This document shows, one piece after another, positions 11,254 to 29,088 of a stretch of 29,088 nt of DNA (its first letter is position 1; each line of letters begins with the position of its first letter). The translations under genes and the position numbers were made by a program. Source of the DNA: Acidobacteriota bacterium (GTDB lineage: Bacteria; Acidobacteriota; UBA890); NCBI GenBank assembly GCA_022563115.1, contig JADFNY010000001.1:1-29088 (forward strand), given 5' to 3'. Below the pieces are notes generated by a model. That model saw nothing but the letters and a program-made list of their open reading frames with translations. It was not told the DNA's origin and made no database searches.

Positions 11254-12759
11254 CTAGATGCTTTCTCGCTGCGGTTCCCGCAGCCGGATGAAGCGTCGCG
11301 CTAGGTCGAGTTCCCATGGTTTCCCATACCGGCAAGTGGCGTATCGCCAGCCGGCGAGGCGACGAATCAGGGTCTTGCCCCAGCGCGGTGTCGTGTAGTC
11401 CTGAACGGTAGGGAATCGACAATAGAGTACCTTCGAAAAGTCTTTCACGCGTTGCCGTATCGCCGGCGTGAGCCACGGAGCGTCCTGGTGGCAGACATAG
11501 TCGATCCACTGCGCCTGCGTCCATTCCTCGGGCGTCGTCGGTAGCGCCGGTCCCTCCGGCCCGTAGGTTCGCAACACCGGAATGCGCGCGCTCGATCGGT
11601 CCCGTTCCGTCCAAGCGGGCTCCCGTTGCGGTGTCGGACTGTAGAAATAGAGGATGACTTCGCACGTCGGGTGGATCGCTTTCAGTTTCTTGATGAACTC
11701 GAACGTCTTCTCGATTTCTCCTTCGGGATCTTCGGGGCCGCCGAGGACGAACGAGAATTCCGGTATGACCCCGTGCGCGCGACAGCGACGCGCGACCTCG
11801 AAAGTGTGTTCGACCTTGGTCCCTTTCTTCATGCTTTTGAGGACGGAATCACTCGCCGCCTCCGCCCCGACGTAGGTCATCTTGAGGCTGCTCTTTTCGA
11901 TCAGATTCCACGTCTTGGTCGAGAAATTGGCCAACGTGTCGGTTCGGGCGTAGCACCACCAGGGAAGCTGGAAGTGGGCGAGCACCTCCAGGATCTCCAC
12001 GCTGGTCTCCTCACGGTCGAAAAAGTTGTGGTCGTAGTACTGGACGGCGTTCGCCCCGTACTTGTCACGCAACGTCGTAAGAGCGGCGGCCAGGCGGTCG
12101 GTGCCTTGGAGATCGGTGTGGCCGTTGAACATGGACACCACGCCACAGAAGGTGCAGCGGTACCGGCAGCCGATTGCCGCTTGGTGTACCGCCGTGCGCG
12201 AACCGAGAAAGCTCGGCCTGAGGTATTGCTCGACGTCCCGCAGGCGGTCGTACGGGTAGGGTGGGTAGGCGTCCGGCGAGCGGAACGGGCGGTCGGGGTT
12301 GTGCACTATTTGGCCGTTCAGCTTCCACGTCAGGCCACGAATCTCAGCCGGGCCGGCACCGGGAAGCCGGTCCAGCAACTCCAGTAGCGTCTCCTCTCCC
12401 TGGCCTCGGATCACGAAATCGACGTAGGGCGCGTTGATGGCGGAGTCTGGATACAGGGTAGGGAAAAAGCCGCCCCACGCGATGGGCACCTCCGGGGCGT
12501 GTTCCCGAACCATCGATGAAATCTCGATGGCGGGTGCGACCTGCGGGCCGGGCATCACGGTGACGGCAACCAGTGCCACATCGGATTGATCGAGAAGGCT
12601 CTGTATCTCGGAGAGGGGGTTGGGAACGACGTTGCCGTCGATGATCTCGAATTCCCATCGTTCCTCGAGTGCGGCACCGAGCGCCAGAAGCGACAAGGGG
12701 AACCGCACCGCCCGCGGGGAGCACATTTTCGGATTGACCAGGATGACGCGTCGCCTCAT
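11254..12759 (-). CDS. Cobalamin-binding radical SAM protein (class B methyltransferase-like)
   Basis: N-terminal B12-binding domain ([31 protein letters not shown]), [15 protein letters not shown]. The ATG at 12759 overlaps the fcl stop. Confidence 0.88.
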
Positions 12760-13736
12760 GGAATTGGCTCGCCAGGTCGTGGAGTCTTGTCTGATTCGAT
12801 GCGCGAGTGATTGTTCTCGCAAAACCATGAATACGTCTTGCGGAGGCCTTCTTTCAACCCCGTCTCCGGTTGCCACCCGAGGGCGCGCAACCGGGATGCG
12901 TCAAGGAGCTTGCGTGGTGCACCGTCGGGCTTATCGGGCTCAAAACGAATCTCTGCACCCGGAAAGACGATCTCACGGATCATCTCGGCGAGCTCGCGGA
13001 TTTCCAAGTCCTGTCCGGTCCCGATGTTGATGTGGTCTTCGTCGGAGTATTCCTTCATCAGAAACAGGCAAGCGTCGGCGAGGTCATCAACGTACATGAA
13101 CTCCCGTCGGGCGGTCCCGGTTCCCCATACCCTGACCTGGCTCTCGCCCGATAGGCGTACGTCGTGAAAGCGGCGCATCAGTGCGGCGATCACGTGGGAC
13201 GACTCGGTTTCGAAGTTGTCCTGCGGGCCGTACAGGTTGGTCGGCATCACGCTGATGAAGTCGCATCCGTATTGTCGCCGATATGCCTGGCAGAGCTTTA
13301 TGCCGGCGATCTTGGCCATCGCGTAGGGCTCGTTTGTAGGCTCCAGGGGTCCGGTGAGCAACGCCTCTTCAGGCATCGGCTGCTCTGCCTCGCGCGGGTA
13401 GCTACACGAGCTTCCGAGATAGAGGAGCTTTGTCGCACCGTGCCGATAGGCGGCATGCACGACGGTGGCGTGGATCATCAGATTGTCGTAGATGAACTCC
13501 GCCGGTCGGGTAGCGTTCGCCCAAATACCGCCGACGGTTCCCGCCGCCAGAAACACGTAGCCGGGGTTTGATTCCTCGAACCACGCATCGACGTCCGCCT
13601 GGTTCCGAAGGTCGAGCTGCGCTCGCGTCGGCAGGAGAAGGCGTTCGAACCCCTCCTGTCGGAGCCGGCGGACAATGGCTGAGCCGACGAGCCCTCGATG
13701 CCCCGCCACATAGACTCTCGCTTCTGTATCGAACAT
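12756..13736 (-). CDS. fcl: GDP-L-fucose synthase (GDP-4-keto-6-deoxymannose epimerase/reductase)
   Basis: [65 protein letters not shown]. Start set at the ATG at 13736. Confidence 0.93.
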
Positions 13737-13784
13737 CAACGCAACGCCGTCAGTTATGTTCTGGCCAGGAATTGAGACACCGAG

Positions 13785-13865
13785 CAGGGTGCTGCAGAAC
13801 TCCCGGGGGCGCCTCTGCCCCACAAGAGCCATGCGCCGCGCCCCCGGGAGTTCTTCAGCACCCTG
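13785..13865. mobile_element. 81-bp palindromic element (MITE/REP-like) with 28-bp terminal inverted repeats
   Basis: cagggtgctgcagaactcccgggggcgc (13785-13812) pairs with gcgcccccgggagttcttcagcaccctg (13838-13865) at 27/28 positions around a 25-nt spacer. The inverted repeat is certain; mobility is inferred. Confidence 0.6.
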
Positions 13866-13872
13866 TTAAGAT
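13864..13872 (+). promoter_or_regulatory. Putative extended -10 element (TGnTAAGAT) for the GT4-led plus-strand operon
   Basis: TG-T-TAAGAT about 30 nt upstream of the ATG at 13902. The TG is supplied by the end of the inverted-repeat element. Confidence 0.3.
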
Positions 13873-13901
13873 ACTCCAGGAGCGGACCCTCGTTTGAAAG
13901 C

Positions 13902-14990
13902 ATGAGTCCACCGCGTCGGGTATCACCCACGGCCGAGCGGCAGCCGAGCGTCGTATTCATGGTCCCCGGCTTCCCCGAGGGCGAGGAGGACACAACGTGT
14001 CTTCCCGCGATCCAGAATTACATAGACGCCTTTTGCGCGTCGCGACCCGACCTCGACGTGCACGTGATCGCGTTCCAATATCCGTTTTTCCGCGGAGAAT
14101 ACGCGTGGAAGGAAGCGACGGTTCACGCTCTCGGTGGGATGAACCGCAGGAGCTTGAGGCGCATGCCCACGTGGGCACGGGCGATCCTGACCTTCATGCG
14201 ACTCCGCAGGCGCACGGATGTGCGGGTGCTGCACACATTTTGGTTGACCGAATGCACTCGAGTCGGTCAATGGCTCGGCAGGGCCTTCGGAATCCGGCAC
14301 GTCGCCAGTATTGGCGGGCAGGACGCCCAACCGACAAATCCGTACCTGCGCCACCTGAGGCTGGATGATCTGGTGCTGACGGCGGGCTCCAACTTTACCG
14401 CCAATGTTTTCGCCAAGCACTCCGCCGGTGCGCGCGTTCATGTGATCCCCCTCGGACTTGATACGAGGCACCTGGAAGCGATCGATCCCCCGCCGGAGAG
14501 AGACATCGATGTGATCGGCGTCGGTTCGCTCATCCCGTTGAAGGACTACGGAGCGTTCGTGGATATCGTTGCCGCTCTCACCTCCGATTTTCCCGACGTC
14601 AGCGCCCGCATCATCGGTGCCGGTCCGCAGCAGGAGGCGCTCCGAGAGCGCATCGTGCGGCATGGTTTGCAGAACAACGTCGTGCTGATGGGTCATCTAC
14701 CCCGCGACGAAGTCTTCCGTTACATGCTGCGGAGCAAGGTATTCCTGCACACCTCGAAGTACGAGAGTCAGGGCTACGTTTTTCTGGAGGCGCTCTTTGC
14801 CGGGTTGCACGTGGTCTGCTACGACGTTGGGTACACCGGCAATAGCGACCGTGTATTCAGGTGCCGGTCGAGCCACGAGATCATCGACGTGGCGACCGAC
14901 CTGATCCGCAATCCTGGCCGCTTGCTTCGCCAGCGAGTGCCAACCGTGGAGGATACAGTCAGGGCCTTCGAAGCGATCTACGGCGACTGA
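13902..14990 (+). CDS. Glycosyltransferase family 4 (GT-B, retaining)
   Basis: VIPLGLD, IGVGSLIPLKDY, IIGAGPQ, GHLPRDEV, VFLHTSKYESQGYVFLEAL (ExxxxxxxE). Confidence 0.88.
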   Translation: MSPPRRVSPTAERQPSVVFMVPGFPEGEEDTTCLPAIQNYIDAFCASRPDLDVHVIAFQYPFFRGEYAWKEATVHALGGMNRRSLRRMPTWARAILTFMRLRRRTDVRVLHTFWLTECTRVGQWLGRAFGIRHVASIGGQDAQPTNPYLRHLRLDDLVLTAGSNFTANVFAKHSAGARVHVIPLGLDTRHLEAIDPPPERDIDVIGVGSLIPLKDYGAFVDIVAALTSDFPDVSARIIGAGPQQEALRERIVRHGLQNNVVLMGHLPRDEVFRYMLRSKVFLHTSKYESQGYVFLEALFAGLHVVCYDVGYTGNSDRVFRCRSSHEIIDVATDLIRNPGRLLRQRVPTVEDTVRAFEAIYGD

Positions 14991-15042
14991 CTTGGAGGTC
15001 GGAGCAAAGCGCGTCACCCTTCGTTTCACCTCAAAGAAGGCG

Positions 15043-15834
15043 ATGTTGCATCCATACTTCTTCAAGAAGCTGTTGCTCAAATCAGCGATCGCGCTCCCCG
15101 CGCCCCGTCTCTTGTCCCGGCTCTGTCGTCTGTACAACGACGCCAAGAACGGGGAGAACTTCGGCGATATGACGATCAACGGCGAGGTGCGCTTTCTCCG
15201 CTCCCAGGCCCACGGCTGTGACGTGCTCTTCGACGTCGGCGCCAACCGAGGTGAATGGACCCAGCACGCTCTGGCGGCGACCAAAGAGGCTCAAATCCAC
15301 TGCTTTGAACCGCTACCGTCCCTTTACCAGACACTGCTCGCCAACCAATTTCCGCGGCGGGTCGTCTGCAATGAGTTCGGGTTGTCTGACGAGACCGGTG
15401 AGCGTCAAATGGACCCCGCGACAACATCCTTGTACGGCCGCCGCCCGAATTCCGACGGCGGTCCTGCGTCCTCGTTGACAGCAACTGTCCGGTTGAGCAC
15501 CCTCGACGAATATTGTGCCGAGCAAGGGGTCGAGCAGATTGATTTACTCAAGCTCGATGTGGAGGGGCACGAGCTGGCCGTGTTGCGGGGTGGACAGAAA
15601 ATGATCCACGAGGGACGCGTCAAACGGATTCAATTCGAGTATGGCCCGTGCAACATCGATTCGCGCGTGCTGTTACGCGACTTGTTCGCGTTCTTCGAAG
15701 ACCTGGAGTACGACGTCTACAAGATCACTCCGCGCAAGCTAGTCAAGCTGAGCGCGTACGACCGGCGATTGGAGAACTTCCAATACAAGAACTTCGCGGT
15801 GCTGCATCCGTCGCTCGGGGCAAAGCGGAGCTGA
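15043..15834 (+). CDS. FkbM-family methyltransferase
   Basis: FDVGANRGEW, HCFEP, TLDEY, IDLLKLDVEGHELAVLRG, IQFEY. ATG at 15043 follows AAGAAGG; a TTG at 14992 is an alternative start. Confidence 0.88.
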   Translation: MLHPYFFKKLLLKSAIALPAPRLLSRLCRLYNDAKNGENFGDMTINGEVRFLRSQAHGCDVLFDVGANRGEWTQHALAATKEAQIHCFEPLPSLYQTLLANQFPRRVVCNEFGLSDETGERQMDPATTSLYGRRPNSDGGPASSLTATVRLSTLDEYCAEQGVEQIDLLKLDVEGHELAVLRGGQKMIHEGRVKRIQFEYGPCNIDSRVLLRDLFAFFEDLEYDVYKITPRKLVKLSAYDRRLENFQYKNFAVLHPSLGAKRS

Positions 15835-15837
15835 GCC

Positions 15838-16794
15838 ATGTCCGGAGACATGGAATTGGTGCAGCTCCTGGTGTGTCCCTCGTGTCGGACACCGCTGGTC
15901 GAAGAGACCGACGGCATATTGCGCTGTCCGGATGAAGGGACGACCTACACTCGCGAGGCGGGTGTCTGGCGGCTGCTCGACGACTCCAGAGGTTCGGACG
16001 CGACCAGATTTCTGGCCCACTACCAGGCCGTGCGGCGACGTGAGGGCTGGGGTGCCGACGACGACGGCTACTACCGGGCCCTGCCATTCGAGGACCGAAC
16101 CGGTCGTCATCCGGCGATCTGGTACATCCGCGCGACAACGTATCGAGTGTTCGTCCGCAAGGTCATGCAACCGATCGAGACCGTTCGTGGAAGGCAGAGA
16201 ATCCTCGATCTCGGTGCCGGCAACGGCTGGCTCTCGTACCGCCTCGCCCGCCGCGGTCACGAGGTGGCCGCGGTCGATCTCAACGACGACCCGCAGGACG
16301 GCCTGGGCGCCCACGTTCACTACGACCGCGAGGCGCCGTTCGCGGTGATCCAGGCGTCATTCGATCAACTGCCCTGGCCGGACGATGTCATCGACTTGGC
16401 CATCTACAACGGCAGCCTGCACTACAGCACCGATTACTGCGCCACCCTGCGCGAAGCGCTTCGCGTGCTCGCCCCGGGTGGCCGGGTGGTGATTCTCGAC
16501 TCTCCCTTTTATCGCCACCGCAAGAGCGGTGAGGCGATGGTTCGAGAGCGAGAGGATGTCTTTCGAGACGACTGCGGCGGTGACACCGGTGGGATGGGCA
16601 ACGAGGGATTCTTGACGCTCGCCCGCCTGGACGGGCTGGAACAGGACCTCGGCATCTCATGGCGGGTGTTGCACCCGTACTACGGACTCCGCTGGGCGCT
16701 ACAGCCGGTCAAGAACTGGATCATGGGGCGGCGTGAGCCGGCTCGCTTCCATGTCGTCATCGGCTCCTCGTCATCGGGTGAAGCTTCGCGATGA
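15838..16794 (+). CDS. Class I SAM-dependent methyltransferase with N-terminal Trm112-like domain
   Basis: LVCPSCRTPL...LRCPDEGTTY...GVWRLL, then ILDLGAGNGW, AAVDL, FDQLPW, YNGSLHY, LRVLAPGG. Confidence 0.82.
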   Translation: MSGDMELVQLLVCPSCRTPLVEETDGILRCPDEGTTYTREAGVWRLLDDSRGSDATRFLAHYQAVRRREGWGADDDGYYRALPFEDRTGRHPAIWYIRATTYRVFVRKVMQPIETVRGRQRILDLGAGNGWLSYRLARRGHEVAAVDLNDDPQDGLGAHVHYDREAPFAVIQASFDQLPWPDDVIDLAIYNGSLHYSTDYCATLREALRVLAPGGRVVILDSPFYRHRKSGEAMVREREDVFRDDCGGDTGGMGNEGFLTLARLDGLEQDLGISWRVLHPYYGLRWALQPVKNWIMGRREPARFHVVIGSSSSGEASR

Positions 16795-18581
16795 GTGGCG
16801 GACGGTCGATCGGATCGTGGTGGAGCGTTCTGGCGCTCGCGGCGACGGCCTTCTTCGTCGCCTACAGTTCGCCGATCGACTTCACCTACAGCGATCCGTG
16901 GGGCAACCTCCTCACCGCGCAAGCGATTCTCGAGCACGGGACGATCAAACTCGACGCCTATCCCGAGGCACACGCGCTCTCGGAGCTCCGGCTCGACACG
17001 GAGCTTGACGGCCATCGCTACTACGACTACCCGGTCGGCACACCGGTGCTTGCGGTGCCGGCCGTGTGGCTCGCACGGCTCGCGGGCATGGACATGGCGG
17101 ACGAGGACGAGAACACCGCCTTGCAGCAGCTACTGGCGGCCTTGACCGTCGTTTTCTCCGTACCTCTCATCTTCGTGTTGTGCCGGCTGTACCTTCCCTA
17201 TGCGTACAGCTTGCTCATCACCGTCGTTTTTGTCTTCGGCAGCTCGGTCGCCAGCACGCTGGGAACGGCGTTCTGGAGCTCGAACCTGACGTTCCTGCTC
17301 AACCTGACGACCGTGTGGATCCTTGCTCGGGACCGCCTCGGGGTTCGACCTGCCAACCCCTACCTCATCGGCGTACTGCTCTTCCTCGCCTACCTCTGCC
17401 GCCCGACAGCCGCGTTGTTGGTCGTGGTTGTTATCGGGTACTTGGCGCTGGCGAGACGGCCGCTTCTGTGGCGCACGTCGGGGGTCGTTGCCGTCCTGGG
17501 CTGTGCCTTCGTGGTGTTCGCCTATGCAGAGTTCGGGTTGTTGGTGCCACCGTATTACGCGCCGTCGGGACTGGGATCCGGCGATTTCTGGACCGCCCTG
17601 GTCGGCAACGTCGTAAGCCCTTCTCGAGGGGTGCTGGTCCTCTATCCTTTTCTTCTCCCCGTCGTGGTCGGCGGCGCAGTGTTCCATCGGCGCCTGGCGC
17701 CGGACCCGTTGCTTCGACTGGCCCTCATCTGGCTTGGCCTGCACTGGATCACCGTCTCCTCACCCGTCACTCTTGGCAACGGTCACACCGTCCTCTGGTG
17801 GGGCGCCTGGAGTTTCGGCAATCGGTTGTTCGCGGATGCGCTCCCGGCACTGATCCTTCTGACGATCGGTGTCTTCAAGGCAGCCCTGGACACTCTCGCG
17901 CCGCCGAGTCAACGGCGGGCGACGGTGGCCTTTGTCGTGCTCGGCGGTGTGGCGATCTTCATCCACAGTTATCAAGGCCTGTACAACGTGTACCCGTTCC
18001 TCTGGAGTCAAGACGGGACCTATGTTGACCACCTCTTCGACTGGCAGCACCCGCAGTTTCTCGCCAGCGCGGCGAGTCTGGCTCGGCATCGGCGACAACA
18101 TCTGCTCCCGGCCGCAGCGCCACGCTCTCTCTACGATCCGATCACGCCGACCAGCGAAGGGGTGATCTTCGAGAACTGGTCCCTGCCGGAGGGCAACGGC
18201 CAATGGCGTTGGTCCAACGGGACCTCCGCGACCATTCTCTTCCGAACCGGCCCCGAGACACCCGCTACGCCCGGCCCCCTGGTCCTCGAGGTGGTGGCCG
18301 GAACCTTCCAGGCCCAGCGACTGACGGTGTTCATCAACGATGTCGAAGTCGGAACGATCGACAGCCGCACCCATTGGGAACCTGCGACCTACCGGTTCAA
18401 CGTAGCCGCCTCCGCCCTGGCCGGGGTGACATCAGATGAGGATGCCGCTACGGGCGTCGTCGAGATCAGGTTCTCGATCCCCCAAGCACGTAGCCCCGCG
18501 AGCCTGAATCCGGATGGGCGGGGCGACCGGCGGTTGCTGGGGCTGTGCTTGCGCGAGCTCATCCTGGTGACTCCGACGTGA
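16791..18581 (+). CDS. Polytopic membrane protein, probable GT-C-superfamily glycosyltransferase with C-terminal extracytoplasmic beta domain
   Basis: N-terminal TM helix followed by a YSD-containing loop and many hydrophobic segments (YLCRPT, SPSRG, WWGAWSFGNRLFADALP). Ends in a soluble domain with W.WS.G and D.RLLGL. ATGA overlap with the upstream methyltransferase. Confidence 0.6.
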   Translation: MSGGRSIGSWWSVLALAATAFFVAYSSPIDFTYSDPWGNLLTAQAILEHGTIKLDAYPEAHALSELRLDTELDGHRYYDYPVGTPVLAVPAVWLARLAGMDMADEDENTALQQLLAALTVVFSVPLIFVLCRLYLPYAYSLLITVVFVFGSSVASTLGTAFWSSNLTFLLNLTTVWILARDRLGVRPANPYLIGVLLFLAYLCRPTAALLVVVVIGYLALARRPLLWRTSGVVAVLGCAFVVFAYAEFGLLVPPYYAPSGLGSGDFWTALVGNVVSPSRGVLVLYPFLLPVVVGGAVFHRRLAPDPLLRLALIWLGLHWITVSSPVTLGNGHTVLWWGAWSFGNRLFADALPALILLTIGVFKAALDTLAPPSQRRATVAFVVLGGVAIFIHSYQGLYNVYPFLWSQDGTYVDHLFDWQHPQFLASAASLARHRRQHLLPAAAPRSLYDPITPTSEGVIFENWSLPEGNGQWRWSNGTSATILFRTGPETPATPGPLVLEVVAGTFQAQRLTVFINDVEVGTIDSRTHWEPATYRFNVAASALAGVTSDEDAATGVVEIRFSIPQARSPASLNPDGRGDRRLLGLCLRELILVTPT

Positions 18582-18607
18582 GAAGGCGCCCGCCAACAAG
18601 CCCAGGA

Positions 18608-18661
18608 GAGGCGCTGACCCTGCCACAGGGCCCTGGTTTCGACCTCGGCGTGGATCAGGAT
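18608..18661 (-). pseudogene. Relic fragment of an FkbM-family methyltransferase paralog (inverted)
   Basis: The minus strand reads ILIHAEVETRALWQGQRL, versus TIIHVEVETREFWHGQKL in the adjacent gene (19156-19209). 11 of 16 residues are identical over IH..L. Confidence 0.7.
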
Positions 18662-18666
18662 TTGGC

Positions 18667-19461
18667 GTGATGACGCTCTATACAGACATTCTGTTTCAGG
18701 TACTGATAAAGCGACTGCAACCAGACCTCGTCTGCGATGTTGGCTCCATGAATGCACGCGATGCGAAACGCTTTCGTCACGTGTTGCCCAAGGCGAGGAT
18801 CGTTGCCTTTGAAGCGAGTCCCCATAACGCGCAGCTCATAGAGGAAAGCGGTGATGTAGACGACTACGACATACAGCTTCGACGTCAAGCGGTCTCGAAT
18901 GTCGATGGCACGCTTACCTTCAACGTCGAGCATTTTTCCAGCGAAAAAGGCCAGCATCTGCGTCAGAGCATTAGCTCGACGCGGAAACGAATAGCGGGCA
19001 GCCTGGGTAGGACTGAAGTCGAAGTCGAATCGATTCGCTTAGATACTTTTGTCCAACGGTTGACTCCACCCCCTGCGAGCATCGCTCTTTGGATCGATGC
19101 CGAAGGTAATAGCTATGAAATCCTCGAAGGTATGGAGGGAATCCGGCACAGAGTCACGATCATCCATGTCGAGGTAGAAACTCGGGAATTCTGGCATGGT
19201 CAGAAACTGAAAGCCGACGTCGTAGACCTGATGGCGTCTATGGACTTCGTTTCCTTTGCCCGCGGATACGATGAGTTTCAGCACGATGTCATTTTTCTAG
19301 CGGCCCGCACGTTGACATCATCCGGAGTCAACTTTCGGTTGCATGCGTTTCGCGTCTTCATTGTCTCCGCATTTGCTCATGGCTTTGAACTCATCAAGCG
19401 CAAAATCAAGCGCACAGTTCATGCGATTCGATCAGCTGTGAGAAACAAGCGCCTGCTTTAG
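18667..19461 (+). CDS. FkbM-family methyltransferase (low GC)
   Basis: VCDVGSMNA, IVAFEASP, AVSN, VESIRLD, LWIDAEG...ILEG, IHVEVE. Start is GTG 18667 or ATG 18670. Confidence 0.8.
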   Translation: MMTLYTDILFQVLIKRLQPDLVCDVGSMNARDAKRFRHVLPKARIVAFEASPHNAQLIEESGDVDDYDIQLRRQAVSNVDGTLTFNVEHFSSEKGQHLRQSISSTRKRIAGSLGRTEVEVESIRLDTFVQRLTPPPASIALWIDAEGNSYEILEGMEGIRHRVTIIHVEVETREFWHGQKLKADVVDLMASMDFVSFARGYDEFQHDVIFLAARTLTSSGVNFRLHAFRVFIVSAFAHGFELIKRKIKRTVHAIRSAVRNKRLL

Positions 19462-20378: not shown

Positions 20379-20478
20379 GGGACAATCGGGGCGCGATCCT
20401 ACGCGCCAGGACTTCTATCCTGAAGACCCTCGATCACTCCCGATCCCCGGGAGACGTGTTCTATCTGGTGAACCCGAC

Positions 20479-21633: not shown

Positions 21634-22588
21634 GTCTCCGCCGCGCCGTTCTGCCAACGATGTAGGCGGCGGGGTCGCTCACCGCCAGGTAACGGAGGCC
21701 CCGAAATCGATCTCGCCACCGATCGGGGCTTTCCCGGTGCAGCTCGCGGTAATCGTTGACCGTCATTTCCCAGAATTCCTCGGCCAGACCTGCCGACCGG
21801 TGGGCGCGCGCCGCGTACCGTTTGACGCGCAGACAGGAAACGATCGAGCCCTTCTGGCTGGCGTGGGCGTCGAGGGCAGAGCCATGGGCCGACGCGACGC
21901 TCGAGATGTCCACGACCCGGTTGACGAGAACGGCGCTCAGCGGCACCTGGATTTGGAAGACACGGATCCGTGGCCCGTCATCTCCCGGGTAGCACGTTGC
22001 CAGCGCCGAGGCCAACGCGTGTGCGATCGCATGGTGCTCGGGATGGAAATCGACCCGTGACGGCGCGTAGACGAACGTCGGTTTGCAGCGTCGCAACAGC
22101 TCACAGAGCCGCGACTGAAGCGCGCCCCGTTGCCATTCTCCCTCAGGGAGGCTGAACCACTCGAGTCGATCGATGCGCAAGTGCGCGGCCGCCGCTTCGG
22201 CCTCGAGCCGGCGCGTCTCCGCCATCTGCTGCGGCGCCAGGCCGAACGCTCGCGAACGTCGCCCGTCGGTGACGTAGGCGACGCTCACCCGGTCACCGGC
22301 CGCCTCGTGCCGGAGGATTGCGCCGCCACAACCGACGACCTCGTCATCAGGATGAGGCGCAACGACGAGCACCGACCCGTCGTTGCCGAAGAACACCTCC
22401 TCCACTCGGGACGCCCTCAGGTGACTCAGGAGGCCGAATCCGGCGCACCACAGCGTGGCGAAAGCCTCCTGTACGCCGGTCTTCGCCCAATCCCGCGGGC
22501 GTGGCCGCTTCCGCCGCATGGCGCTAGCCGGCATTGCAGGCGCACCCCTTTCCGCCTCCACAGTAGCAACCCGTTGAGCAATGCCCAC
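21614..22588 (-). CDS. PIG-L/LmbE-family N-acetylglucosaminyl deacetylase
   Basis: VLVVAPHPDDEVVGCGG, YVTDG, R..EA.AAA..L, D.HPEH. A GTG start overlaps the GNAT stop by 1 nt; internal ATG starts are possible. Confidence 0.85.
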   Translation of the reverse strand: MGIAQRVATVEAERGAPAMPASAMRRKRPRPRDWAKTGVQEAFATLWCAGFGLLSHLRASRVEEVFFGNDGSVLVVAPHPDDEVVGCGGAILRHEAAGDRVSVAYVTDGRRSRAFGLAPQQMAETRRLEAEAAAAHLRIDRLEWFSLPEGEWQRGALQSRLCELLRRCKPTFVYAPSRVDFHPEHHAIAHALASALATCYPGDDGPRIRVFQIQVPLSAVLVNRVVDISSVASAHGSALDAHASQKGSIVSCLRVKRYAARAHRSAGLAEEFWEMTVNDYRELHRESPDRWRDRFRGLRYLAVSDPAAYIVGRTARRRLIAACR

Positions 22589-23655
22589 TAGATAAGGTCG
22601 AAGTCACCTCCCGCGAGCATCCAGCGCCCGGAGCCGCGAAGCGTTTCGATCCGAATATCCGGATCCAAGATCACCGCGTGGATAACGAACGTCCCCCAAC
22701 TGAACAGAAAGCCTCGACGGCGAAAAAGCCGGTGGTCGCGACTGCCGGGGACCGCCAGGGCGACCGCGATGTCCGCCCCTGCGTCCCGCAGTCTGTCGGC
22801 GGCCTCGCGGATGAGCCAGCTGCCAAAGCGGCTGTCCGGGTGCGGCGTGACTAACTCGGCGATGGCACCAATCCGGCGGCCGTTGACCTCTTGTACTCGG
22901 TAGGCGGCGTATCCGACTGGCTCTTGGCCGTCGCTGGCGACCACGATCCGGTAGGGTGACACCGGTACGTCGAGGAGCCTGTGAACCATCCACGCCTTGT
23001 CGCGGTGAAGTTCGAGGTGCTCCTTCGAGTCGCGCGCGCCCGCCAGCCGGTCGAACGCCGCTTCGGATTCGGCCCGATCCATCGCCTCGAACACCCGGCC
23101 GGGAGACCGCCGCGCGCCGAGGTTCCAGAACGTGTTCCAGAGCCCGCCGGCGGCCTCGAGCCCCGGTAGTCCACCGAGCCGCGTCCGTCTTGCCAACAAC
23201 ACGTCGGGCCGGATGGGGCGGATCATCCAGCGCAGGGATGACACCCGTTGCCAGCCGAGGGCATCGGTGCGCGACCCGTACTCCTCGTTGGGCATGCCGA
23301 GGACGAACGCCACACCGGCGTCGCGCCAGGCGGCGTGAGCGCGGGTTACGACGGCGGTGAACGCTCCTTGGCGGCGCAGCTCGGGTGCGGTCATGGCATC
23401 GACCGCCACCATGACGGTGTGCTCCCCGTCCGGAAGACGGACGCGCCGTGGGATTCCCGCGTATTGACACAGCGGACGATCCTGGCCGTCGACCGCGAGC
23501 CACACGTTGGGCGGGGCCTTGGCGTGATCGCCAAGCTTCCACCTCCACAGCTGCGGCGTCATGGGCCGCTCGAACACCCGTTCGAACAGCGCGGCCAGGT
23601 GCACCTCATCCCCCGAACGGTACGGGCGAACGGTCCATGACCGCTGCTCGATCAC
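22588..23655 (-). CDS. GNAT-family acyltransferase (355 aa, probably two GNAT-like lobes)
   Basis: VRPYRSGD..L.ALF..VF, W.WK, VDAMTAPELRRQGAF (acyl-CoA motif A), GMPN, second lobe GYAAYR...IAEL. Confidence 0.75.
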   Translation of the reverse strand: MIEQRSWTVRPYRSGDEVHLAALFERVFERPMTPQLWRWKLGDHAKAPPNVWLAVDGQDRPLCQYAGIPRRVRLPDGEHTVMVAVDAMTAPELRRQGAFTAVVTRAHAAWRDAGVAFVLGMPNEEYGSRTDALGWQRVSSLRWMIRPIRPDVLLARRTRLGGLPGLEAAGGLWNTFWNLGARRSPGRVFEAMDRAESEAAFDRLAGARDSKEHLELHRDKAWMVHRLLDVPVSPYRIVVASDGQEPVGYAAYRVQEVNGRRIGAIAELVTPHPDSRFGSWLIREAADRLRDAGADIAVALAVPGSRDHRLFRRRGFLFSWGTFVIHAVILDPDIRIETLRGSGRWMLAGGDFDLI

Positions 23656-23685
23656 GATTGGCTCGGTCTCACAACCCGCCCGATC

Positions 23686-24732
23686 TCATAACCCGCTCGC
23701 CCGCCAGGGCGACAAGTGCAACGGGCAAACGCACCGGCGGCAGATCTCGTCGCTGGCGACGTCGAGATTGCGGCGAAACGCAACCGCTCGGTCAGCGTTC
23801 AGAATCTCGTCGAGGGGCGCCTCGTGAATGTTGCCGAGCGGCGGGTGGAAAAAGCATGGTCGCACGGTGCCATCGGCCTCGATCACCGTTGAGACCCAGG
23901 GGGCGTTGCATGTCGGAGCTACAGGCTCGCACTGTCCGCTGAGGGCCAGGAAATGGCGCGCAATCCGCCGGAGCTTGTCGGGCGACTCAGCGATAAAGTC
24001 GGACTCGAAGTCACTACGAGAGCTGGTGATGACCGCTTCGAGCATGCCCTCGAACTCGCGGGCCTCCTCGGGTTCAAGGCCCACCTCGGCCGCCCTGGCC
24101 TCGTCCCAGCGCACCGGTCGGTTGAATGCCTCGGTGGTGATATCGGCCGCCAGGAAGGAGATCTGGTTCAGTGTGATGTCGTGAGCGGCCTCGATGATCC
24201 CGAGAAGATGCTTGTAGTTGAGACGCTGAACCACGCACCGACCGGTGACCCGATAACTCGGGTCGATCTGCCGCAGTGCCCTGACACCGGCGGCGAGGCG
24301 GTCGAACACCCCGGGGATGCGGCGAATGCGGTCGTGCAGCGACCGGTTTCCGTCGAGGGACACGATGACCTCGTCGCACCACAGCACGACCGGCTGCGCG
24401 TGCCGTTCGAGGCTCAGACCGGTCGAGAGCAAGGTAATCCGAACGCCTTGCTCCTTGAGCAGCTCGCACAGCGTCCAGAGATTCGAATGCAGCAGAGCCT
24501 CGCCACCCGATAACACGACGGACCGGACGCCAAGCTTGCCGAACGCCCCGACATGAGGCTCTAGATCTTGGCGCGAGAGTTCCTGTCTGCGGTCGTTCGC
24601 CTTCCAGATGTCGCACATCACGCAACGGCAATCGCAGCGACTGTGCGGCATGAGAACGACCACCGGCAGCGTGTGGATCCGATGGGTCCACAGGGTCACG
24701 TGGCGCTTGACGATTTGACTTGGAGCGAGCAT
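23686..24732 (-). CDS. Radical SAM protein with C-terminal SPASM/twitch domain
   Basis: CDCRCVMCDIW, LSGGEALL, VSLDG...HDRIR. C-terminal CNAPW.STVIEADGTVRPCFF...GNI...L.EILN...CRRCVC. Confidence 0.88.
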   Translation of the reverse strand: MLAPSQIVKRHVTLWTHRIHTLPVVVLMPHSRCDCRCVMCDIWKANDRRQELSRQDLEPHVGAFGKLGVRSVVLSGGEALLHSNLWTLCELLKEQGVRITLLSTGLSLERHAQPVVLWCDEVIVSLDGNRSLHDRIRRIPGVFDRLAAGVRALRQIDPSYRVTGRCVVQRLNYKHLLGIIEAAHDITLNQISFLAADITTEAFNRPVRWDEARAAEVGLEPEEAREFEGMLEAVITSSRSDFESDFIAESPDKLRRIARHFLALSGQCEPVAPTCNAPWVSTVIEADGTVRPCFFHPPLGNIHEAPLDEILNADRAVAFRRNLDVASDEICRRCVCPLHLSPWRASGL

Positions 24733-25400
24733 CAGGGCGCCCTTTGCAAGCGGTAGATCGTCAATACCTCGCTGATCAGGTTCTGTCGGGTGACGACGTC
24801 GAGAATGAGGTCGTTGCGGCGAAAAGCCGCGAGGAACGTTGCGCTGTCGCCATCCGAAGAGAGGACCACGAGCGCGTAGCCTCCAGGGGTCAGATGATCC
24901 GGAAGCGCGGCCGCAAAGCGCTCGACAACGTCATCAGAGCGCCAGGCCATCTCGAAGCCATCGTCGGGCCGGCCGCGGAAGTACGGCGGGTTGAACAGCA
25001 CGACGTCGTAACGGCGCCCGTGCACTGGCTCGAAGAGGTCGCCTTCGTAGACAACGATGCGGTCCTCCATCGTGTGGAGCAAAGCGTTGATGCGCGCGCA
25101 GCGCACGGCCTCCGGATTGATGTCCACGGCATCGACGTTCGGGGCCCATTGTGCAGCCAGCAGGGCGCCGATGCCGGTTCCGGTACCCATGTCGAGCACC
25201 CGCGCACGCGGCTGAATCAATGATTCGTTGAGCGTCTCGGAAAGCAACTGGCCGGTGCGGAACAGCCGGGGATTGAAAACGTGCGGCAGCACGACGATGG
25301 AACGCCCGGCCACATGTTCGATCACCATGCGGTTGAGGCGATGGCGCTGAAAGAGCACGAAGCGGCAGCGCAACAACAGCCGCCACAGCGGCCGCAGCAT
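24732..25400 (-). CDS. HemK/PrmC-like methyltransferase (NPPY motif)
   Basis: VFNP, VLDMGTGTG, AVDINPEAVRCARIN, GDLFEPV, DVVLFNPPYF. Start set at the ATG at 25400, 2 bp after the upstream stop. Confidence 0.85.
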   Translation of the reverse strand: MLRPLWRLLLRCRFVLFQRHRLNRMVIEHVAGRSIVVLPHVFNPRLFRTGQLLSETLNESLIQPRARVLDMGTGTGIGALLAAQWAPNVDAVDINPEAVRCARINALLHTMEDRIVVYEGDLFEPVHGRRYDVVLFNPPYFRGRPDDGFEMAWRSDDVVERFAAALPDHLTPGGYALVVLSSDGDSATFLAAFRRNDLILDVVTRQNLISEVLTIYRLQRAP

Positions 25401-25402
25401 GC

Positions 25403-26824
25403 TCAGCGCCGCTCGAAGACGGTCAGGTGGTGAGCACGCTGCGGCTCCACCTGATGTCGCGCCAGGAGCATCCCGAGGCGGCCGAGCCAGGCATTGAAAA
25501 AGGTGATGAGTCGCCTGGTCTGACTGCGCAGACCGTGTCCGTGTTCGCGGCTCAGGGCCACTTCGTTCACCAACCAGCGGATGGCGAATCGGTAGAACAG
25601 TCGCGATCGCCTCCCGGCGACCGTGAGGTCCCGATCTGAGCCTTCTTCCCAGCTCGTTGACGACACGACGCGGTCGGCCACCTGCCGATAGTACTCCGTG
25701 CCTTTGATCGGGTACGCGACGGTGGTGAGAAACGTGTCGGGGGCGGCGGCTTTGAGATAGTCGACCGTCGCTGCGATGTCGGCCGGGGTCTCGCCCTCGT
25801 AGCCGAGCATGATGAAGGTCCCCGCTTCGATCCCGTGGCTTTGGAGCATCCCGATGACCTCGCCCATGCGAGCGGCGTTCGTGCGCCGTTTCATCGCGTC
25901 GAGTATCCGCTGCGAGCCGCTTTCGGCGCCTACCCACAACCGAAAACAACCCATGTCGGCGAGCGTCTGGATGATCTCCTCATCCAATCGATCTTCGCGC
26001 GAGATGGCCTCGAACGGTACTCGCAGCCCGCGTCTCTTCAGCTCGGCCGCGTACTCGAGATTCCAACGATGATGCACCGTAAACACATCGTCGGCGTACC
26101 AGAGCATGTCGGGATGATACGTCTCGACGATCAACTCCACCTCGTCAGCCACGTTCTGCGGTGATCGGCGGCGGTGGGTGAAGCCGAACACGCTGTGGCT
26201 GCACCAGGTGCACTGGTAGGCACAACCTCGGGCGGTGATCAGAGAGACCGCGCTCCTGCCGCGCTCACGACGCCAGGCGTCCAAGTAGCGCTCCATGTCG
26301 ATTGCCCCGCGGTCGGGGAAGGGCTGCCCGTCGAGGTCGTCGAGGGGGCGACGAGCGGGAGTCTCCACGAACTCGCCGTCGGGCGCCCGGAAGGCGATGC
26401 CCGGGATGTGTCCCAGGTTCTGTGGCCCCTGGTCAAGGAGATGCGGGACGAGCTCTTCGAGCGTGAGCTCGCCTTCGCCGCTGACCACCACGTCGGCTCC
26501 GCGGGCCAGATACTCCTCATGGTAGCTATAGGGCTCCGGTCCTCCCAGCACCACGATGGCTCCCTGATCCTTGGCCAGCCGGGTCATGGCGAGCACGTTG
26601 CGGCGGGTCATCAGATTGCCTGAGATGCCGACGATGGGTGGCGTTTCGTCGGCGACGAGGCGGCCGAAGTCGGCGGGATGGTTGAACGTGGTGTCGAAGA
26701 TCTCCACCTCGGTGCCGCGCTGCTTCAGGTGTGATGAGAGGTACAGGAGTCCCAACGGAGGATAGGGATGCTTCTCTGCCGGATCTTCTTCGAGGTGATA
26801 CCCGTGCGTCAGCAGCAGATCCAT
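25403..26824 (-). CDS. Cobalamin-binding radical SAM protein
   Basis: YPPLGLLYLSS, VVLGGPEP, GEGELT, PFPDR, TARGCAYQCTWCSH, ADDVF, WVGAESGSQRILDAM, YPIKGT. Confidence 0.9.
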   Translation of the reverse strand: MDLLLTHGYHLEEDPAEKHPYPPLGLLYLSSHLKQRGTEVEIFDTTFNHPADFGRLVADETPPIVGISGNLMTRRNVLAMTRLAKDQGAIVVLGGPEPYSYHEEYLARGADVVVSGEGELTLEELVPHLLDQGPQNLGHIPGIAFRAPDGEFVETPARRPLDDLDGQPFPDRGAIDMERYLDAWRRERGRSAVSLITARGCAYQCTWCSHSVFGFTHRRRSPQNVADEVELIVETYHPDMLWYADDVFTVHHRWNLEYAAELKRRGLRVPFEAISREDRLDEEIIQTLADMGCFRLWVGAESGSQRILDAMKRRTNAARMGEVIGMLQSHGIEAGTFIMLGYEGETPADIAATVDYLKAAAPDTFLTTVAYPIKGTEYYRQVADRVVSSTSWEEGSDRDLTVAGRRSRLFYRFAIRWLVNEVALSREHGHGLRSQTRRLITFFNAWLGRLGMLLARHQVEPQRAHHLTVFERR

Positions 26825-26839
26825 AGCTCTCTTCGCCCT

Positions 26840-26884
26840 CGAGGCTCGTCGGCCACGCTGCCCCCCGAGCCTCGCTTATTTTTT
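26840..26884 (+). terminator. Intrinsic-terminator-like hairpin with T-tract, oriented antisense to the flanking genes
   Basis: cgaggctcg (26840-26848) / cgagcctcg (26866-26874) form a perfect 9-bp stem, followed by CTTATTTTTT. Confidence 0.45.
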
Positions 26885-26887
26885 ACC

Positions 26888-28303
26888 TCATGACAGCCTG
26901 GGCGCCGGATGCAGCCTCTCGATGAGCATCTGCTCCAGCGGAAGACCGTAGAAGTCGCGCCGGCAACGCCAGCGCGACACCGCCTGCAGCGGCCACCTCC
27001 GCCAGGTTTCCGGGCCCCCAGCAAACCGATTATAGAACTTGAATCGTTCGATCAGCCGGTACTTCTCCGGGCTTACCCAAGGCGCGGCCGAGCCGATGAA
27101 GTCGAACTCCGCCCAGTCTTCCAGGGTCGAGGGCAACTCGTAGCCCGACCGAACCATGTCCTCCGTGATCTGCGAGCCGGGGTAGGGCTTGAAGTAGAAG
27201 AGCGGCGTCTCGAAATGCGGGCTCATCGCCCGCAAGCGTTTCATGAGGCTCACCGTCTCGTCGACGCTCTCGTCGCTCTCTCCGGGAAAGCCGACGATGA
27301 AGGGGAAGATGCCGGCCACCCCATGGCGGACGCACATGTCGGCTGTTTTCAGCACTTGCTCTATGGTGATGTCCTTTTTCATCCAGTCGAGCATTTCTTG
27401 CGAGCCCGACTCGACGCCGACCATTACCCGACGCAGACCTGAACGCACGCAGAGCCTGAATTTTTCTTCATCGAGCCGGACACCCTGGTCGGCGCGGAGC
27501 GTGGCGGTCCAGTCGAACTGGAGACCGCGTTGCAGGAACTGGTGGGCGATCTCCGCCGCGCGGTCCGCATAGGTGAAGAAAGTTTCATCTTGAAACGCCA
27601 GCTCGGTGAAGTGATGGCGCTGCCACAAGGCTTCGATCTCTTCGCCCATCCGCGAGGGAGCCACGGCCGTCCAGCGACGGCCGTAGACGAACGGATCAGC
27701 GCAGAAGGTGCAACGGAAGTAGCAGCCGACCGAAGAAATGTAATCGACTTGACGCTGCGCCTTCAAGCGGAAGTACCGCTCGACCGGAAGCAGCGCGTAG
27801 TTAGCGGCCGGCAGGTCGTCCATGGCGACGATGGGTCGAGGAGGGTTCAGCTTTGCTTCGCCGTCGCGGCGGAAGGCAATGCCCTCCAGCTGGTCCAGGT
27901 CCCCACCACCGGCCACCCTCTCGACCAGCTCGACAAAAGTCGCCTCCCCCTGACCGCGGACGGTGACGTCGACCGAGGGTTCGTTCAGCGTCTCCAGCGG
28001 AAAGAGCGAGGGGTGCCATCCACCCCAGACCACGGGAAGGTCGGGGCGTCGCGCCTTGGCCGCTCGGCTGACCTGCAACGCATCGCGTATGGGGTCGCCG
28101 GTGAGGACGGTAATCCCGAGCAGCAGCGCGCCTTCGATCTCGCGGAGCACCGCTGCCACCGGGTCCGTCTCTAATCGGCCGTCGACGATCAGTACCTCGA
28201 ACTGGCGCTGATCGATGCACGATCCAAGGGCCACGAGTGCCAACGGCATCGTGTAGAACACCGAGCGCGGGTTGTAGAGCACGATCTTCGGTTTGCGGCT
28301 CTG
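26888..28303 (-). CDS. Cobalamin-binding radical SAM protein; start codon uncertain or disrupted
   Basis: KIVLYNP..YTMPLALVALG, VWGGWHPSL, RGQGE, SSVGCYFRCTFC, GVESGS. The expected start position (28303) reads CAG; the nearest in-frame starts are GTG 28282 and ATG 28249. Confidence 0.8.
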   Translation of the reverse strand, partial: QSRKPKIVLYNPRSVFYTMPLALVALGSCIDQRQFEVLIVDGRLETDPVAAVLREIEGALLLGITVLTGDPIRDALQVSRAAKARRPDLPVVWGGWHPSLFPLETLNEPSVDVTVRGQGEATFVELVERVAGGGDLDQLEGIAFRRDGEAKLNPPRPIVAMDDLPAANYALLPVERYFRLKAQRQVDYISSVGCYFRCTFCADPFVYGRRWTAVAPSRMGEEIEALWQRHHFTELAFQDETFFTYADRAAEIAHQFLQRGLQFDWTATLRADQGVRLDEEKFRLCVRSGLRRVMVGVESGSQEMLDWMKKDITIEQVLKTADMCVRHGVAGIFPFIVGFPGESDESVDETVSLMKRLRAMSPHFETPLFYFKPYPGSQITEDMVRSGYELPSTLEDWAEFDFIGSAAPWVSPEKYRLIERFKFYNRFAGGPETWRRWPLQAVSRWRCRRDFYGLPLEQMLIERLHPAPRLS

Positions 28304-29088
28304 TCGGAGCTCTCCGGTGTCGGCACGGCTGCCTCCTGTGGCGTCATCGCCGTCGACAACGAGCCGGCTCGCCGGTCCGAGAGACGCATCAAGCGTTGCA
28401 TCCGGAAGCGCGCGAGCGGCAGTGTGGCCCCGTGGTAGAGAGCGGCCCCGGCGAGCCGGAACGCTCCGCGGTCGAGGCGGGTTGGTCGGCGAAGTGCTCC
28501 GAGCAGCCGACGAGCGGCGCTGCGAGCCCTGAACTCCTTGTGCAGCACACGGTACAACTGCCGGTAGAACTCGGTGGTGTAGGTGCCGACAAACATCATG
28601 TCGAGGTCCTCGGAGTCGATCCAGTTCTGCTTGGGGCCCAGATCCTGCTCCACCATCTGGTAGAACTTGGTGCCGGGGAGCGGATAGGAGACCGACATGC
28701 CGATCTCGTCGGGCCGGCACTCGCGCACCATTCGCAACGTCTTCTCGATATCTCCCCGGTCCTCGCCCGGATAGCCGAACTGCAGAAAGAACCCCACCCG
28801 GATACCCGCGTCGTGCAGCCGTTCGGTCGCCTCGTAGATCTGTTCGACCCGGGTACCCTTGTCCATGGCGTCGAGGATCTTCTGGGAGCCGGACTCGGCG
28901 CCCACCCAGACGTTGTGCGCACCGGCGCGTCGGAACGCGTCGATCTCACCTTCCCGCAGCAGCAGATCGACACGGCTCTGACACTTGAACCCTACCCGGG
29001 CGTCACGGGCTTCCAGCTCGTCCGCGAAACGTGCCATCCAGCCGCCGCGGAGCCCTATGATGTCGTCGGCGAACCAGATGTGATCGGG
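28189..29088 (-). CDS. Cobalamin-binding radical SAM protein, C-terminal part (5' end beyond window)
   Basis: The frame is open to the window edge: PDHIWFADDI, QSRVDL, WVGAESGSQKILDAMDKG, FLQFGYPGE, SYPLPGT. Paralogous to 25403-26824. The B12 domain and CxxxCxxC motif are not visible and are inferred from that paralogy. Confidence 0.8.
   Translation of the reverse strand, partial: PDHIWFADDIIGLRGGWMARFADELEARDARVGFKCQSRVDLLLREGEIDAFRRAGAHNVWVGAESGSQKILDAMDKGTRVEQIYEATERLHDAGIRVGFFLQFGYPGEDRGDIEKTLRMVRECRPDEIGMSVSYPLPGTKFYQMVEQDLGPKQNWIDSEDLDMMFVGTYTTEFYRQLYRVLHKEFRARSAARRLLGALRRPTRLDRGAFRLAGAALYHGATLPLARFRMQRLMRLSDRRAGSLSTAMTPQEAAVPTPESSDRAANRRSCSTTRARCSTRCRWHSWPLDRASISASSRY

Follow-up and report, generated by a model that had tools for sequence, protein, structure and literature searches.

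The window analysed here, a stretch of 29,088 nucleotides (nt), is the whole of contig C32 in the metagenome-assembled genome (MAG) of an uncultured Acidobacteriota bacterium from marine sediment; the MAG is 75% complete and comprises 447 contigs in a 3.4-Mb assembly. Positions 11254–29088 encode four radical S-adenosylmethionine (SAM) enzymes of the B12-type, two further radical SAM enzymes with SPASM domains, methyltransferases, glycosyltransferases, a deacetylase and an acyltransferase. We consider it likely, with real room for doubt, that this region is the larger part of a cell-envelope glycan locus into which an uncharacterised, horizontally mobile sugar-tailoring cassette is built. All enzyme classes that a preliminary description, made from the DNA letters alone, had named here are matched in Pfam and NCBIfam and retain intact catalytic motifs, and one gene, resembling GDP-fucose synthase, comes in addition. 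The genes are listed below, together with one gene from contig C78, which adjoins the right end of the window.

11254–12759, minus strand: B12_A, B12-type radical SAM enzyme (Pfam B12-binding 2e-14, Radical_SAM 4.6e-13; CRYRCTFC; orthogroup A, sister of C)
12756–13832, minus strand: fcl, GDP-L-fucose-synthase-like nucleoside-diphosphate-sugar epimerase/reductase (NCBIfam GDPFucSynFcl 487.8 bits against a cut-off of 500; Pfam Epimerase 1.5e-65)
13902–14990, plus strand: GT4 glycosyltransferase (Pfam Glycos_transf_1 7e-19; EX7E at residue 288)
14992–15834, plus strand: FkbM methyltransferase 1 (Pfam Methyltransf_21 2e-18; NCBIfam fkbM_fam 96.7 bits against a cut-off of 37.7)
15838–16794, plus strand: MT11, class I SAM methyltransferase with an N-terminal Trm112-like zinc ribbon (Methyltransf_11 3.5e-16, Trm112p 7e-5)
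16791–18581, plus strand: polytopic membrane protein of 596 amino acids (AT skew -0.35, with T in excess on the coding strand; opens a 4.8-kb insertion), probably a GT-C-fold glycosyltransferase
18667–19461, plus strand: FkbM methyltransferase 2, FkbM2 (Pfam Methyltransf_21 3.8e-14; low-GC block)
19432–20334, minus strand: GT2 glycosyltransferase (Pfam Glycos_transf_2 2.8e-29; DAD motif; low-GC block)
20479–21633, plus strand: SPASM1, SPASM-domain radical SAM enzyme (Pfam Radical_SAM 1.6e-17, SPASM 2.6e-9; last gene of the insertion)
21614–22588, minus strand: PIG-L/LmbE de-N-acetylase (Pfam PIG-L, PF02585, 7e-28, 98.1 bits against 28.2; metal-binding motifs AHPDDE at residue 79 and HPEH at residue 182)
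22588–23655, minus strand: two-domain GNAT acyltransferase (Acetyltransf_9 at residues 9–125, Acetyltransf_1/_17 at residues 216–316; Eis/MshD-like architecture)
23686–24732, minus strand: SPASM2, SPASM-domain radical SAM enzyme (Pfam SPASM 1.1e-13, Radical_SAM 8.9e-13; conserved core)
24732–25400, minus strand: HemK-like NPPY methyltransferase (Pfam MTS 4.3e-17; NCBIfam PRK14968.1-3 108 bits; LFNPPYF; conserved core)
25403–26824, minus strand: B12_B, B12-type radical SAM enzyme (Pfam B12-binding and Radical_SAM; CAYQCTWC; orthogroup B)
26888–28303, minus strand: B12_C, B12-type radical SAM enzyme (Pfam B12-binding and Radical_SAM; CYFRCTFC; orthogroup C)
28189–29088, minus strand: B12_D, C-terminal part of a B12-type radical SAM enzyme (Pfam Radical_SAM 2e-10; orthogroup D; the rest lies on C78)
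C78 755–1789, minus strand: nucleotidyltransferase-like protein of 344 amino acids (GS...DxD signature, here GS...DADVDF; nucleotidyltransferase fold)

The coordinates of the open reading frames (ORFs) bear out the tight packing described earlier, with mostly 1–4 nt overlaps or 1–3 nt gaps (fcl overlaps B12_A by 4 nt) and intergenic gaps of at most 145 nt within the window. The reported absence of polyketide synthase (PKS), non-ribosomal peptide synthetase, terpene synthase, transporter and regulator genes likewise holds for 11254–29088.

Recurrence of the cassette across genomes

To place these genes in a wider context, relatives of the organism, a phylum-wide Acidobacteriota sample and a species-representative collection were searched, and 36 loci were picked by having B12_B; many of them are cut by contig ends, so that the gene counts are lower bounds. 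Orthologs of B12_D and B12_A occur in 23 loci each, those of B12_C in 21, a class I methyltransferase ('F6') in 22 and the zinc-ribbon methyltransferase MT11, often adjoining B12_B, in 21, while the NPPY methyltransferase, SPASM2 and the nucleotidyltransferase-like protein are each found in 16. The usual neighbours of the core are GT4 glycosyltransferases, present in 22 of the 36, compared with roughly 12–15 GT4 genes over the 3.4 Mb assembled for this genome, or about one per 250 kb. The related loci also hold an amidohydrolase (10 loci) and Wzx (Polysacc_synt) flippases (4 loci), and the counts for GNAT and PIG-L are 6 and 5.

The carriers belong to Acidobacteriota, Chloroflexota (Anaerolineae, Ardenticatenaceae and Chloroflexia), KSB1 and, within Pseudomonadota, Micropepsaceae, together with a gammaproteobacterial MAG. 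Several complete Acidobacteriota genomes are among the carriers, for example G190, G262 and G200. B12_B is the most conserved cassette gene, with orthologs 52–80% identical in five phyla, and in genome G011, from another genus of the same family, the cassette is collinear from A to D at 69–80% protein identity. A core made up of D-C-B, A, the zinc-ribbon methyltransferase, the NPPY methyltransferase, the twitch enzyme SPASM2 and the nucleotidyltransferase-like protein is conserved as a unit in at least four phyla. In Acidobacteriota, Chloroflexota and Micropepsaceae alike, B12_D has the nucleotidyltransferase-like gene as its immediate upstream neighbour, and in locus L034 that gene adjoins a GHMP sugar kinase gene and a GT4 gene.

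The preliminary description had seen two pairs of paralogs among the B12-type enzymes, and both stand: by BLAST, A and C are 27% identical (206 bits) and B and D 35% (257 bits), against 67–127 bits for the cross pairs. In a tree of 95 sequences, the four orthogroups form clean clades (orthogroup A, with 22 rows, has 100% support), A and C are sister groups, as are B and D, each with 100% support, and in every one of the four the Chloroflexota sequences branch from among those of Acidobacteriota. The distribution is patchy; a B12_B ortholog is present in 33 of 371 good-quality Acidobacteriota genomes (~9%) and was found in none of the other four genomes of the same genus (55–88% complete). This patchiness and the Chloroflexota nesting in all four orthogroups point to horizontal movement of the cassette as a unit. 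In genome G030, a repeated element stands on both sides of B12_A (L015 7129–7415 and 9443–9888), with a further copy ~25 kb upstream (L014 1854–2609), a pattern that may reflect movement of individual genes of the cassette.

That unrelated genes came to lie side by side by chance, or that the MAG was mis-assembled, is scarcely credible as an account of the region. In favour of such an account one could cite an insertion with a further block nested in it, the fossil fragment of a gene and the damaged junction between two genes (all described below), and also the fragmentation of the MAG; however, the collinearity with G011, the recurrence in 36 loci and the four congruent orthogroups speak against it, and both synteny and independent assemblies contradict it. 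Homologs co-occur non-randomly across genomes, which leaves the chance assembly that the preliminary description had allowed for without support. Contigs near-identical to the window occur in marine-sediment metagenomes from at least five studies, and independent contigs bridge, with few differences, the junctions of MT11 with the GT-C gene, of the GT-C gene with FkbM2, and of GT2 with SPASM1 and PIG-L; since several gene junctions are bridged in independent assemblies, the arrangement is not a binning artefact.

Superfamily relationships of the tailoring enzymes

The B12-type enzymes carry the class B radical SAM layout, with PF02310 and PF04055 both above cut-off in A, B and C, and retain CxxxCxxC in all four proteins; in B12_D, which was joined across the window and C78, the motif reads CPYHCNWC and the protein aligns with B over 456 residues. 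By this domain layout A–D are class B enzymes, with a predicted use of cobalamin; AprD4, with the same layout, binds no cobalamin (PMC12931638).

Zero of the radical SAM enzymes reach an NCBIfam equivalog cut-off, in agreement with the earlier statement that the cluster is uncharacterised. The equivalog families tested were HpnJ, BchE, HpnR, PhpK, BzaD, QCMT, AprD4, KedN5 and TsrM-type, and the best scores were 124.6 bits against 577.6 for HpnJ (107 bits against 578 for B12_A, whose best match it is), 148.5 against 481.4 for BchE, 122.1 against 450 for BzaD, 116.8 against 600 for PhpK and 37–66 against 500 for AprD4. Membership in a characterised radical SAM family was thus considered and rejected, the NCBIfam scores being far below cut-off and the PDB sequence and fold searches giving matches at superfamily level only. 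The nearest solved sequence to the B12-type enzymes is AprD4 (5.6e-17), with QCMT/MgmA among the other close solved relatives. An AlphaFold2 model of B12_B (predicted local distance difference test score, pLDDT, 86.2) matches TsrM, MgmA, CysS, TokK and OxsB at template-modelling (TM) scores of 0.63–0.70 and AprD4 at 0.71–0.74.

SPASM1 has CX3CX2C at residues 44–51 and five C-terminal cysteines, and its only homolog among the loci is in L040 (39%). In SPASM2, ten orthologs share invariant C33, C37 and C40 as well as C275, C293, C331, C334 and C336, with GxxxxC before the second C-terminal cysteine. Because each has five C-terminal cysteines, both are twitch-like or partial SPASM proteins and not full seven-cysteine ones. 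The nearest solved sequence to SPASM2 is BlsE (2.5e-12), and its AlphaFold2 model (pLDDT 79.6) matches SkfB, BlsE, SuiB and anSME about equally. As the class B enzymes, like the SPASM/twitch enzymes, all match about equally, the models confirm the superfamily and are uninformative on substrate. The NPPY methyltransferase is predicted to act on an amino or amide nitrogen.

Some of these relationships could point to post-translational methylation of a peptide or protein in the style of polytheonamide or methyl-coenzyme M reductase, in which B12-dependent C-methyltransferases would work alongside an amide-N methyltransferase and a SPASM maturase. QCMT/MgmA, among the nearest solved relatives, is a protein glutamine C-methylase; the NCBIfam matches include ApyD and rSAM_ocin_1, enzymes of ribosomally synthesised and post-translationally modified peptides (RiPPs); the NPPY methyltransferase resembles HemK-type glutamine N-methylases; and the SPASM2 model fits BlsE no better than the RiPP maturases SkfB and SuiB. 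Nevertheless, among 775 candidate small ORFs across the loci screened none was conserved, the clusters being gene fragments or opposite-strand shadows, and it is this lack of a conserved short ORF that weakens the explanation. Moreover, the window leaves too little room between its genes for one encoding a precursor, neither a leader-binding RiPP recognition element nor a protease or exporter was seen, and the enrichment of glycosyltransferases would be left unexplained. We regard a peptide or protein substrate as highly improbable.

Methylation of membrane lipids, either mid-chain as in branched glycerol dialkyl glycerol tetraethers (brGDGTs) or on hopanoids, or remodelling of a glycolipid head group, with the sugar genes serving the head group only, is also quite improbable. 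Soil and sediment Acidobacteriota and anaerobic Chloroflexota carry the cassette, the copies in G030 and L027 stand alone, and HpnJ, HpnR and TIGR04072 ('lipid biosynthesis B12-binding/radical SAM protein') are among the best NCBIfam matches; these scores, however, are 4–5 fold below cut-off, which makes them generic superfamily matches. Squalene-hopene cyclase, Tes/Mss-like, acyltransferase and PlsA-type genes were not seen beside the 36 loci examined, and this absence of lipid-synthesis genes nearby counts against a lipid product. It is not obvious what the NPPY N-methyltransferase and the nucleotidyltransferase-like protein would do on an alkyl chain, and a literature search on brGDGTs and radical SAM methyltransferases found nothing.

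Among characterised enzymes, GenK and GenD1 are the gentamicin C-methylases, AprD4 (PDB 6fd2) acts in apramycin C3' deoxygenation and HpnJ in hopanoid cyclitol ether formation. The cassette enzymes share with all of these an N-terminal Rossmann (B12-binding) domain and a radical SAM core with CxxxCxxC, and HpnJ is the top NCBIfam match for three of the four paralogs. They differ in scoring 4–5 fold below every equivalog cut-off, in occurring as four co-inherited paralogs, and in standing in a glycan assembly context and not in an aminoglycoside or hopanoid cluster.

Layering and extent of the locus

The preliminary description had treated the 18 kb as a single cluster. This holds for the co-occurring core, but not for the region as one evolutionary unit, which is a composite of the conserved core, lineage-specific genes and an insertion. 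Among the 36 loci, fcl and FkbM are found only here and in G011. The segment 16791–21633, holding the GT-C gene, FkbM2, GT2 and SPASM1, is a 4.8-kb insertion that G011 lacks, and in that genome the genes for the zinc-ribbon methyltransferase and PIG-L are convergent neighbours; the inserted form is present in independent metagenome contigs.

Within this insertion lies the low-GC FkbM2-GT2 block (GC 0.53 over 19–20 kb), flanked by a 24-nt direct repeat, 88% identical, at 18564–18587 and 20465–20488. The repeat copies span the GT-C stop codon and the GTG start of SPASM1; a GTGA overlap probably once joined these two genes, before a 1.9-kb insertion separated them. In the 85-nt spacer before FkbM2, positions 18608–18661 on the minus strand translate to ILIHAEVETRALWQGQRL, which resembles TIIHVEVETREFWHGQKL of FkbM2 (19156–19209); judged from this resemblance, the fragment is a relic of an inverted FkbM copy, and it fits a rearrangement at the site.

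The junction between B12_D and B12_C (28189–28315) is damaged as well. In G011 and G012 it reads GAATGAG, an ATGA stop/start overlap, and in the window GACAGAG; the ancestral stop is thereby lost, which gives B12_D a 38-residue tail overlapping B12_C. Contigs from two other studies span this junction with few differences, the variant table giving no reading at GACAGAG itself.

A 28-nt inverted repeat, 96% complementary with a 25-nt spacer, occupies 13785–13865 in the divergent fcl/GT4 intergenic region. Contigs from other metagenomes break at 13865–13870 with many different loose ends, which suggests a multi-copy mobile or REP-like element.

The locus continues beyond the window. Residues 1–268 of the G011 D ortholog map to C78 804..1 and residues 268–529 to the window at 29088..28303; this split of one ortholog across both contig ends shows that C32 and C78 abut. 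Apart from the nucleotidyltransferase-like gene, for which Pfam gave nothing and whose profile matched the MNT nucleotidyltransferase motif in PDB only weakly (E 0.005), C78 holds two GT4 genes, a methyltransferase and a GT4-GT2 fusion. A further contig, C55, carries GT2, GT4, a WecA/MraY-type PF00953 transferase and a PMT_2 GT-C protein, and in G012 a single contig has an ortholog of this GT-C protein ~1.4 kb away from the first of the GT4 genes that flank the cassette. The locus extends over at least 25 kb, and over at least 35 kb if C55 belongs to it.

On its other side, the cassette is preceded by a heme operon:

599–11197, minus strand: heme operon (HemN-like, hemE, hemL, hemC, hemA and hemH), ending 56 nt from B12_A on the same strand

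The class-III aminotransferase at 4640–6124 is the HemL of this operon. A link between cassette and heme operon was rejected: B12_A adjoins an amidohydrolase in G011 and other genes in G012, and since the adjacency is conserved in neither genome, we set the locus boundary at 11200 and regard a functional tie to tetrapyrroles as unlikely. At the left end of the window, long ORFs lie at 2–772 and 776–2464 on the plus strand, or at 599–2122 on the minus strand, with no Pfam match and an ambiguous coding strand. An Rfam scan of the window returned zero RNA families, promoter and terminator scans of it did no better than on shuffled sequence, and a run of RNA-labelled reads matched the window only in pieces 90–95% alike, from relatives.

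Product class and proposed chemistry

We then considered what the locus as a whole could make. The preliminary description had proposed a pathway for a surface glycan or glycolipid, or else for a small molecule; the surface glycan or glycoconjugate context is supported by GT4 in 22 of 36 loci, Wzx in 4 and the neighbouring contigs, and a sugar substrate is probable. A surface glycan or glycoconjugate is accordingly the best-supported product class, and the product is probably a heavily methylated cell-surface sugar; the wording 'heavily C- and O-methylated, re-acylated' is chemical inference only. Parts suited to assembling a glycan on a lipid carrier are at hand: GT4, GT2 and the probable GT-C in the window, and the WecA-like and PMT_2 proteins on C55, whose linkage to the locus we infer only. 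The window GT4 has a 76% identical counterpart in G011. The 596-amino-acid membrane protein is probably PMT_2/GT87-like, since its 33%-identical paralog on C55 has a PMT_2 match in Pfam (6e-11) and those of its Atlas neighbour clusters that are named are PMT, PMT_2, GT87 and GT22, most clusters having no common Pfam family. Wzx, Wzy and Wzz are all missing from the window, and Wzx occurs only in related loci.

Sugars are also the substrates of the nearest solved sequence relatives, paromamine for AprD4 and cytosylglucuronate for BlsE. A sequence of N-acetylglucosamine (GlcNAc) transfer, deacetylation and radical SAM chemistry is known from the bacteriohopanetetrol (BHT) cyclitol ether, made with HpnI, HpnK and HpnJ, and from pactamycin, made with PtmJ, PtmG and PtmC and the C-methylases PtmH, PtmL and PtmM (PMC9092360). 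Compared by enzyme class and not by orthology, the present locus resembles both routes in bringing together a glycosyltransferase, a deacetylase, radical SAM and B12-type enzymes, methyltransferases and an acyltransferase; it differs in having no hopanoid or polyketide/aminobenzoate genes and in a deacetylase of the PIG-L type that is present in only 5 of the 36 loci.

These likenesses also bear on the alternative that the product is a diffusible aminocyclitol- or aminoglycoside-type small molecule, in which GlcNAc would be placed on an aglycone, deacetylated, subjected to radical ring contraction or deoxygenation, and then C-, N- and O-methylated and acylated. GT4, PIG-L, the acyltransferase, the B12-type enzymes and the N- and O-methyltransferases parallel the tailoring enzymes of pactamycin and gentamicin (PMC9092360; PMC12931638), AprD4 is the nearest solved sequence, and some cassettes are without polysaccharide genes. 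By contrast, no 2-deoxy-scyllo-inosose synthase, sugar aminotransferase, PKS, carrier protein, resistance gene or exporter was found among the Pfam-scanned ORFs of 11254–29088, C78 and C55, lipid-carrier glycan genes (WecA-like, GT-C and Wzx) accompany the cassette here and in relatives, and the relevant NCBIfam equivalogs score far below cut-off (AprD4, as given above). Because core, resistance and export genes are missing and lipid-carrier glycan genes are present, we judge a diffusible product unlikely.

Two further systems invite comparison. In mycothiol and bacillithiol synthesis, the GT4 enzymes MshA and BshA are followed by the PIG-L deacetylases MshB and BshB, with MshD as a two-domain GNAT. 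The locus has the same GT4, PIG-L and two-domain GNAT in one place and the same logic of attaching GlcNAc, deacetylating and re-acylating, yet its scores are far below cut-off (the closest NCBIfam models to PIG-L, BshB1/BshB2 at 2e-17, and the MshB equivalog are both below cut-off matches), there is no cysteine ligase MshC/BshC, and here the set accompanies six radical SAM enzymes and lipid-carrier glycan genes. Wzx/Wzy- or GT-C-dependent surface polysaccharide loci with O-methylated sugars are matched in GT2, GT4, GT-C, the WecA-like protein of C55, Wzx in relatives, the Fcl-like enzyme and FkbM, but literature searches brought up no polysaccharide locus that has a conserved block of four B12-type radical SAM enzymes, nor any description of the cassette. 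The enzymes thus fall into known superfamilies and the product class, a surface glycan, is probably a known one, whereas the four-paralog radical SAM block has no characterised counterpart.

Several observations weigh against a glycan locus with a sugar-tailoring cassette. Fourteen of the 36 loci have no glycosyltransferase, and the G030, L027 and L049 cassettes have none within 20 kb; that of G030 (D, C, B, fused methyltransferases and A) lies among genes for an amidase, an oxoacid:ferredoxin oxidoreductase, a helicase and GGT, and after that of L027 come a flavin reductase and another methyltransferase. Given such solitary cassettes, the sugar substrate is probable and not proven. The sugar-acting solved relatives are distant (E 1e-12 to 1e-17), the other close one, QCMT/MgmA, acts on protein, and fold searches do not separate functions, with class B enzymes matching about equally. 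PIG-L occurs in just 5 of the 36 loci and GNAT in 6, and five B12_B carriers of at least 90% completeness yielded no SPASM2. In B12_C the ancestral ATG has become CAG, leaving no normal start codon here, with a GTG seven codons downstream as a possible start. Neither cobQ nor CobS was found in this 75% complete MAG; were the absence real, the organism would need imported cobalamin. C55 is only a candidate part of the locus, placed there by G012 synteny, and the activities, substrate and product of the cassette are proposed from domains and gene context.

On the reading of a glycan locus that we favour, the GT4 or the WecA-like enzyme would put an N-acetylhexosamine (HexNAc), most simply GlcNAc, on the carrier, and PIG-L would strip the N-acetyl group from the carrier-linked HexNAc. 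The freed amine could be re-acylated by the two-domain GNAT, N-methylated by the NPPY enzyme, or both. The four B12-type enzymes would then act in turn at unactivated carbons of the sugar or of the N-acyl group, by C-methylation in the style of GenK, GenD1, TokK or CysS or by radical rearrangement in the style of HpnJ or AprD4, while the twitch enzyme might carry out an oxidation, epimerisation or decarboxylation in the style of BtrN or BlsE. The FkbM enzymes would provide O-methylation and the Fcl-like enzyme a supply of 6-deoxyhexose, and GT2, GT4 and GT-C would assemble and transfer the glycan on a polyprenyl phosphate carrier; the 4.8-kb insertion, with GT-C, FkbM2, GT2 and SPASM1, would be a lineage-specific extension of the locus. 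A gmd gene above cut-off was not found in the 75% complete MAG (best 61 bits against 415); if this absence is real, the Fcl-like enzyme might use a sugar other than GDP-4-keto-6-deoxymannose. A more specific proposal, which we hold only tentatively and rather doubt, is that the four paralogs act in sequence on one de-N-acetylated amino sugar to give a poly-C-methylated or ring-rearranged (carbocyclic) surface-glycan sugar.

B12-domain radical SAM enzymes perform very hard reactions at unactivated carbons, and the substrates of only a small minority of them are known. The cassette is therefore a defined target for new radical chemistry, with four orthogroups that travel with methyltransferases through several phyla of bacteria that abound in soils and sediments, and the orthogroup definitions and the list of loci give a direct route to picking cultured carriers or genes for expression. 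If the four paralogs do act sequentially, both the class of glycan modification and its set of radical reactions would lack a characterised counterpart in polysaccharide biosynthesis. Should the product be a surface glycan, the locus would encode a new envelope decoration in Acidobacteriota and Anaerolineae, bacteria whose envelopes are almost unstudied.

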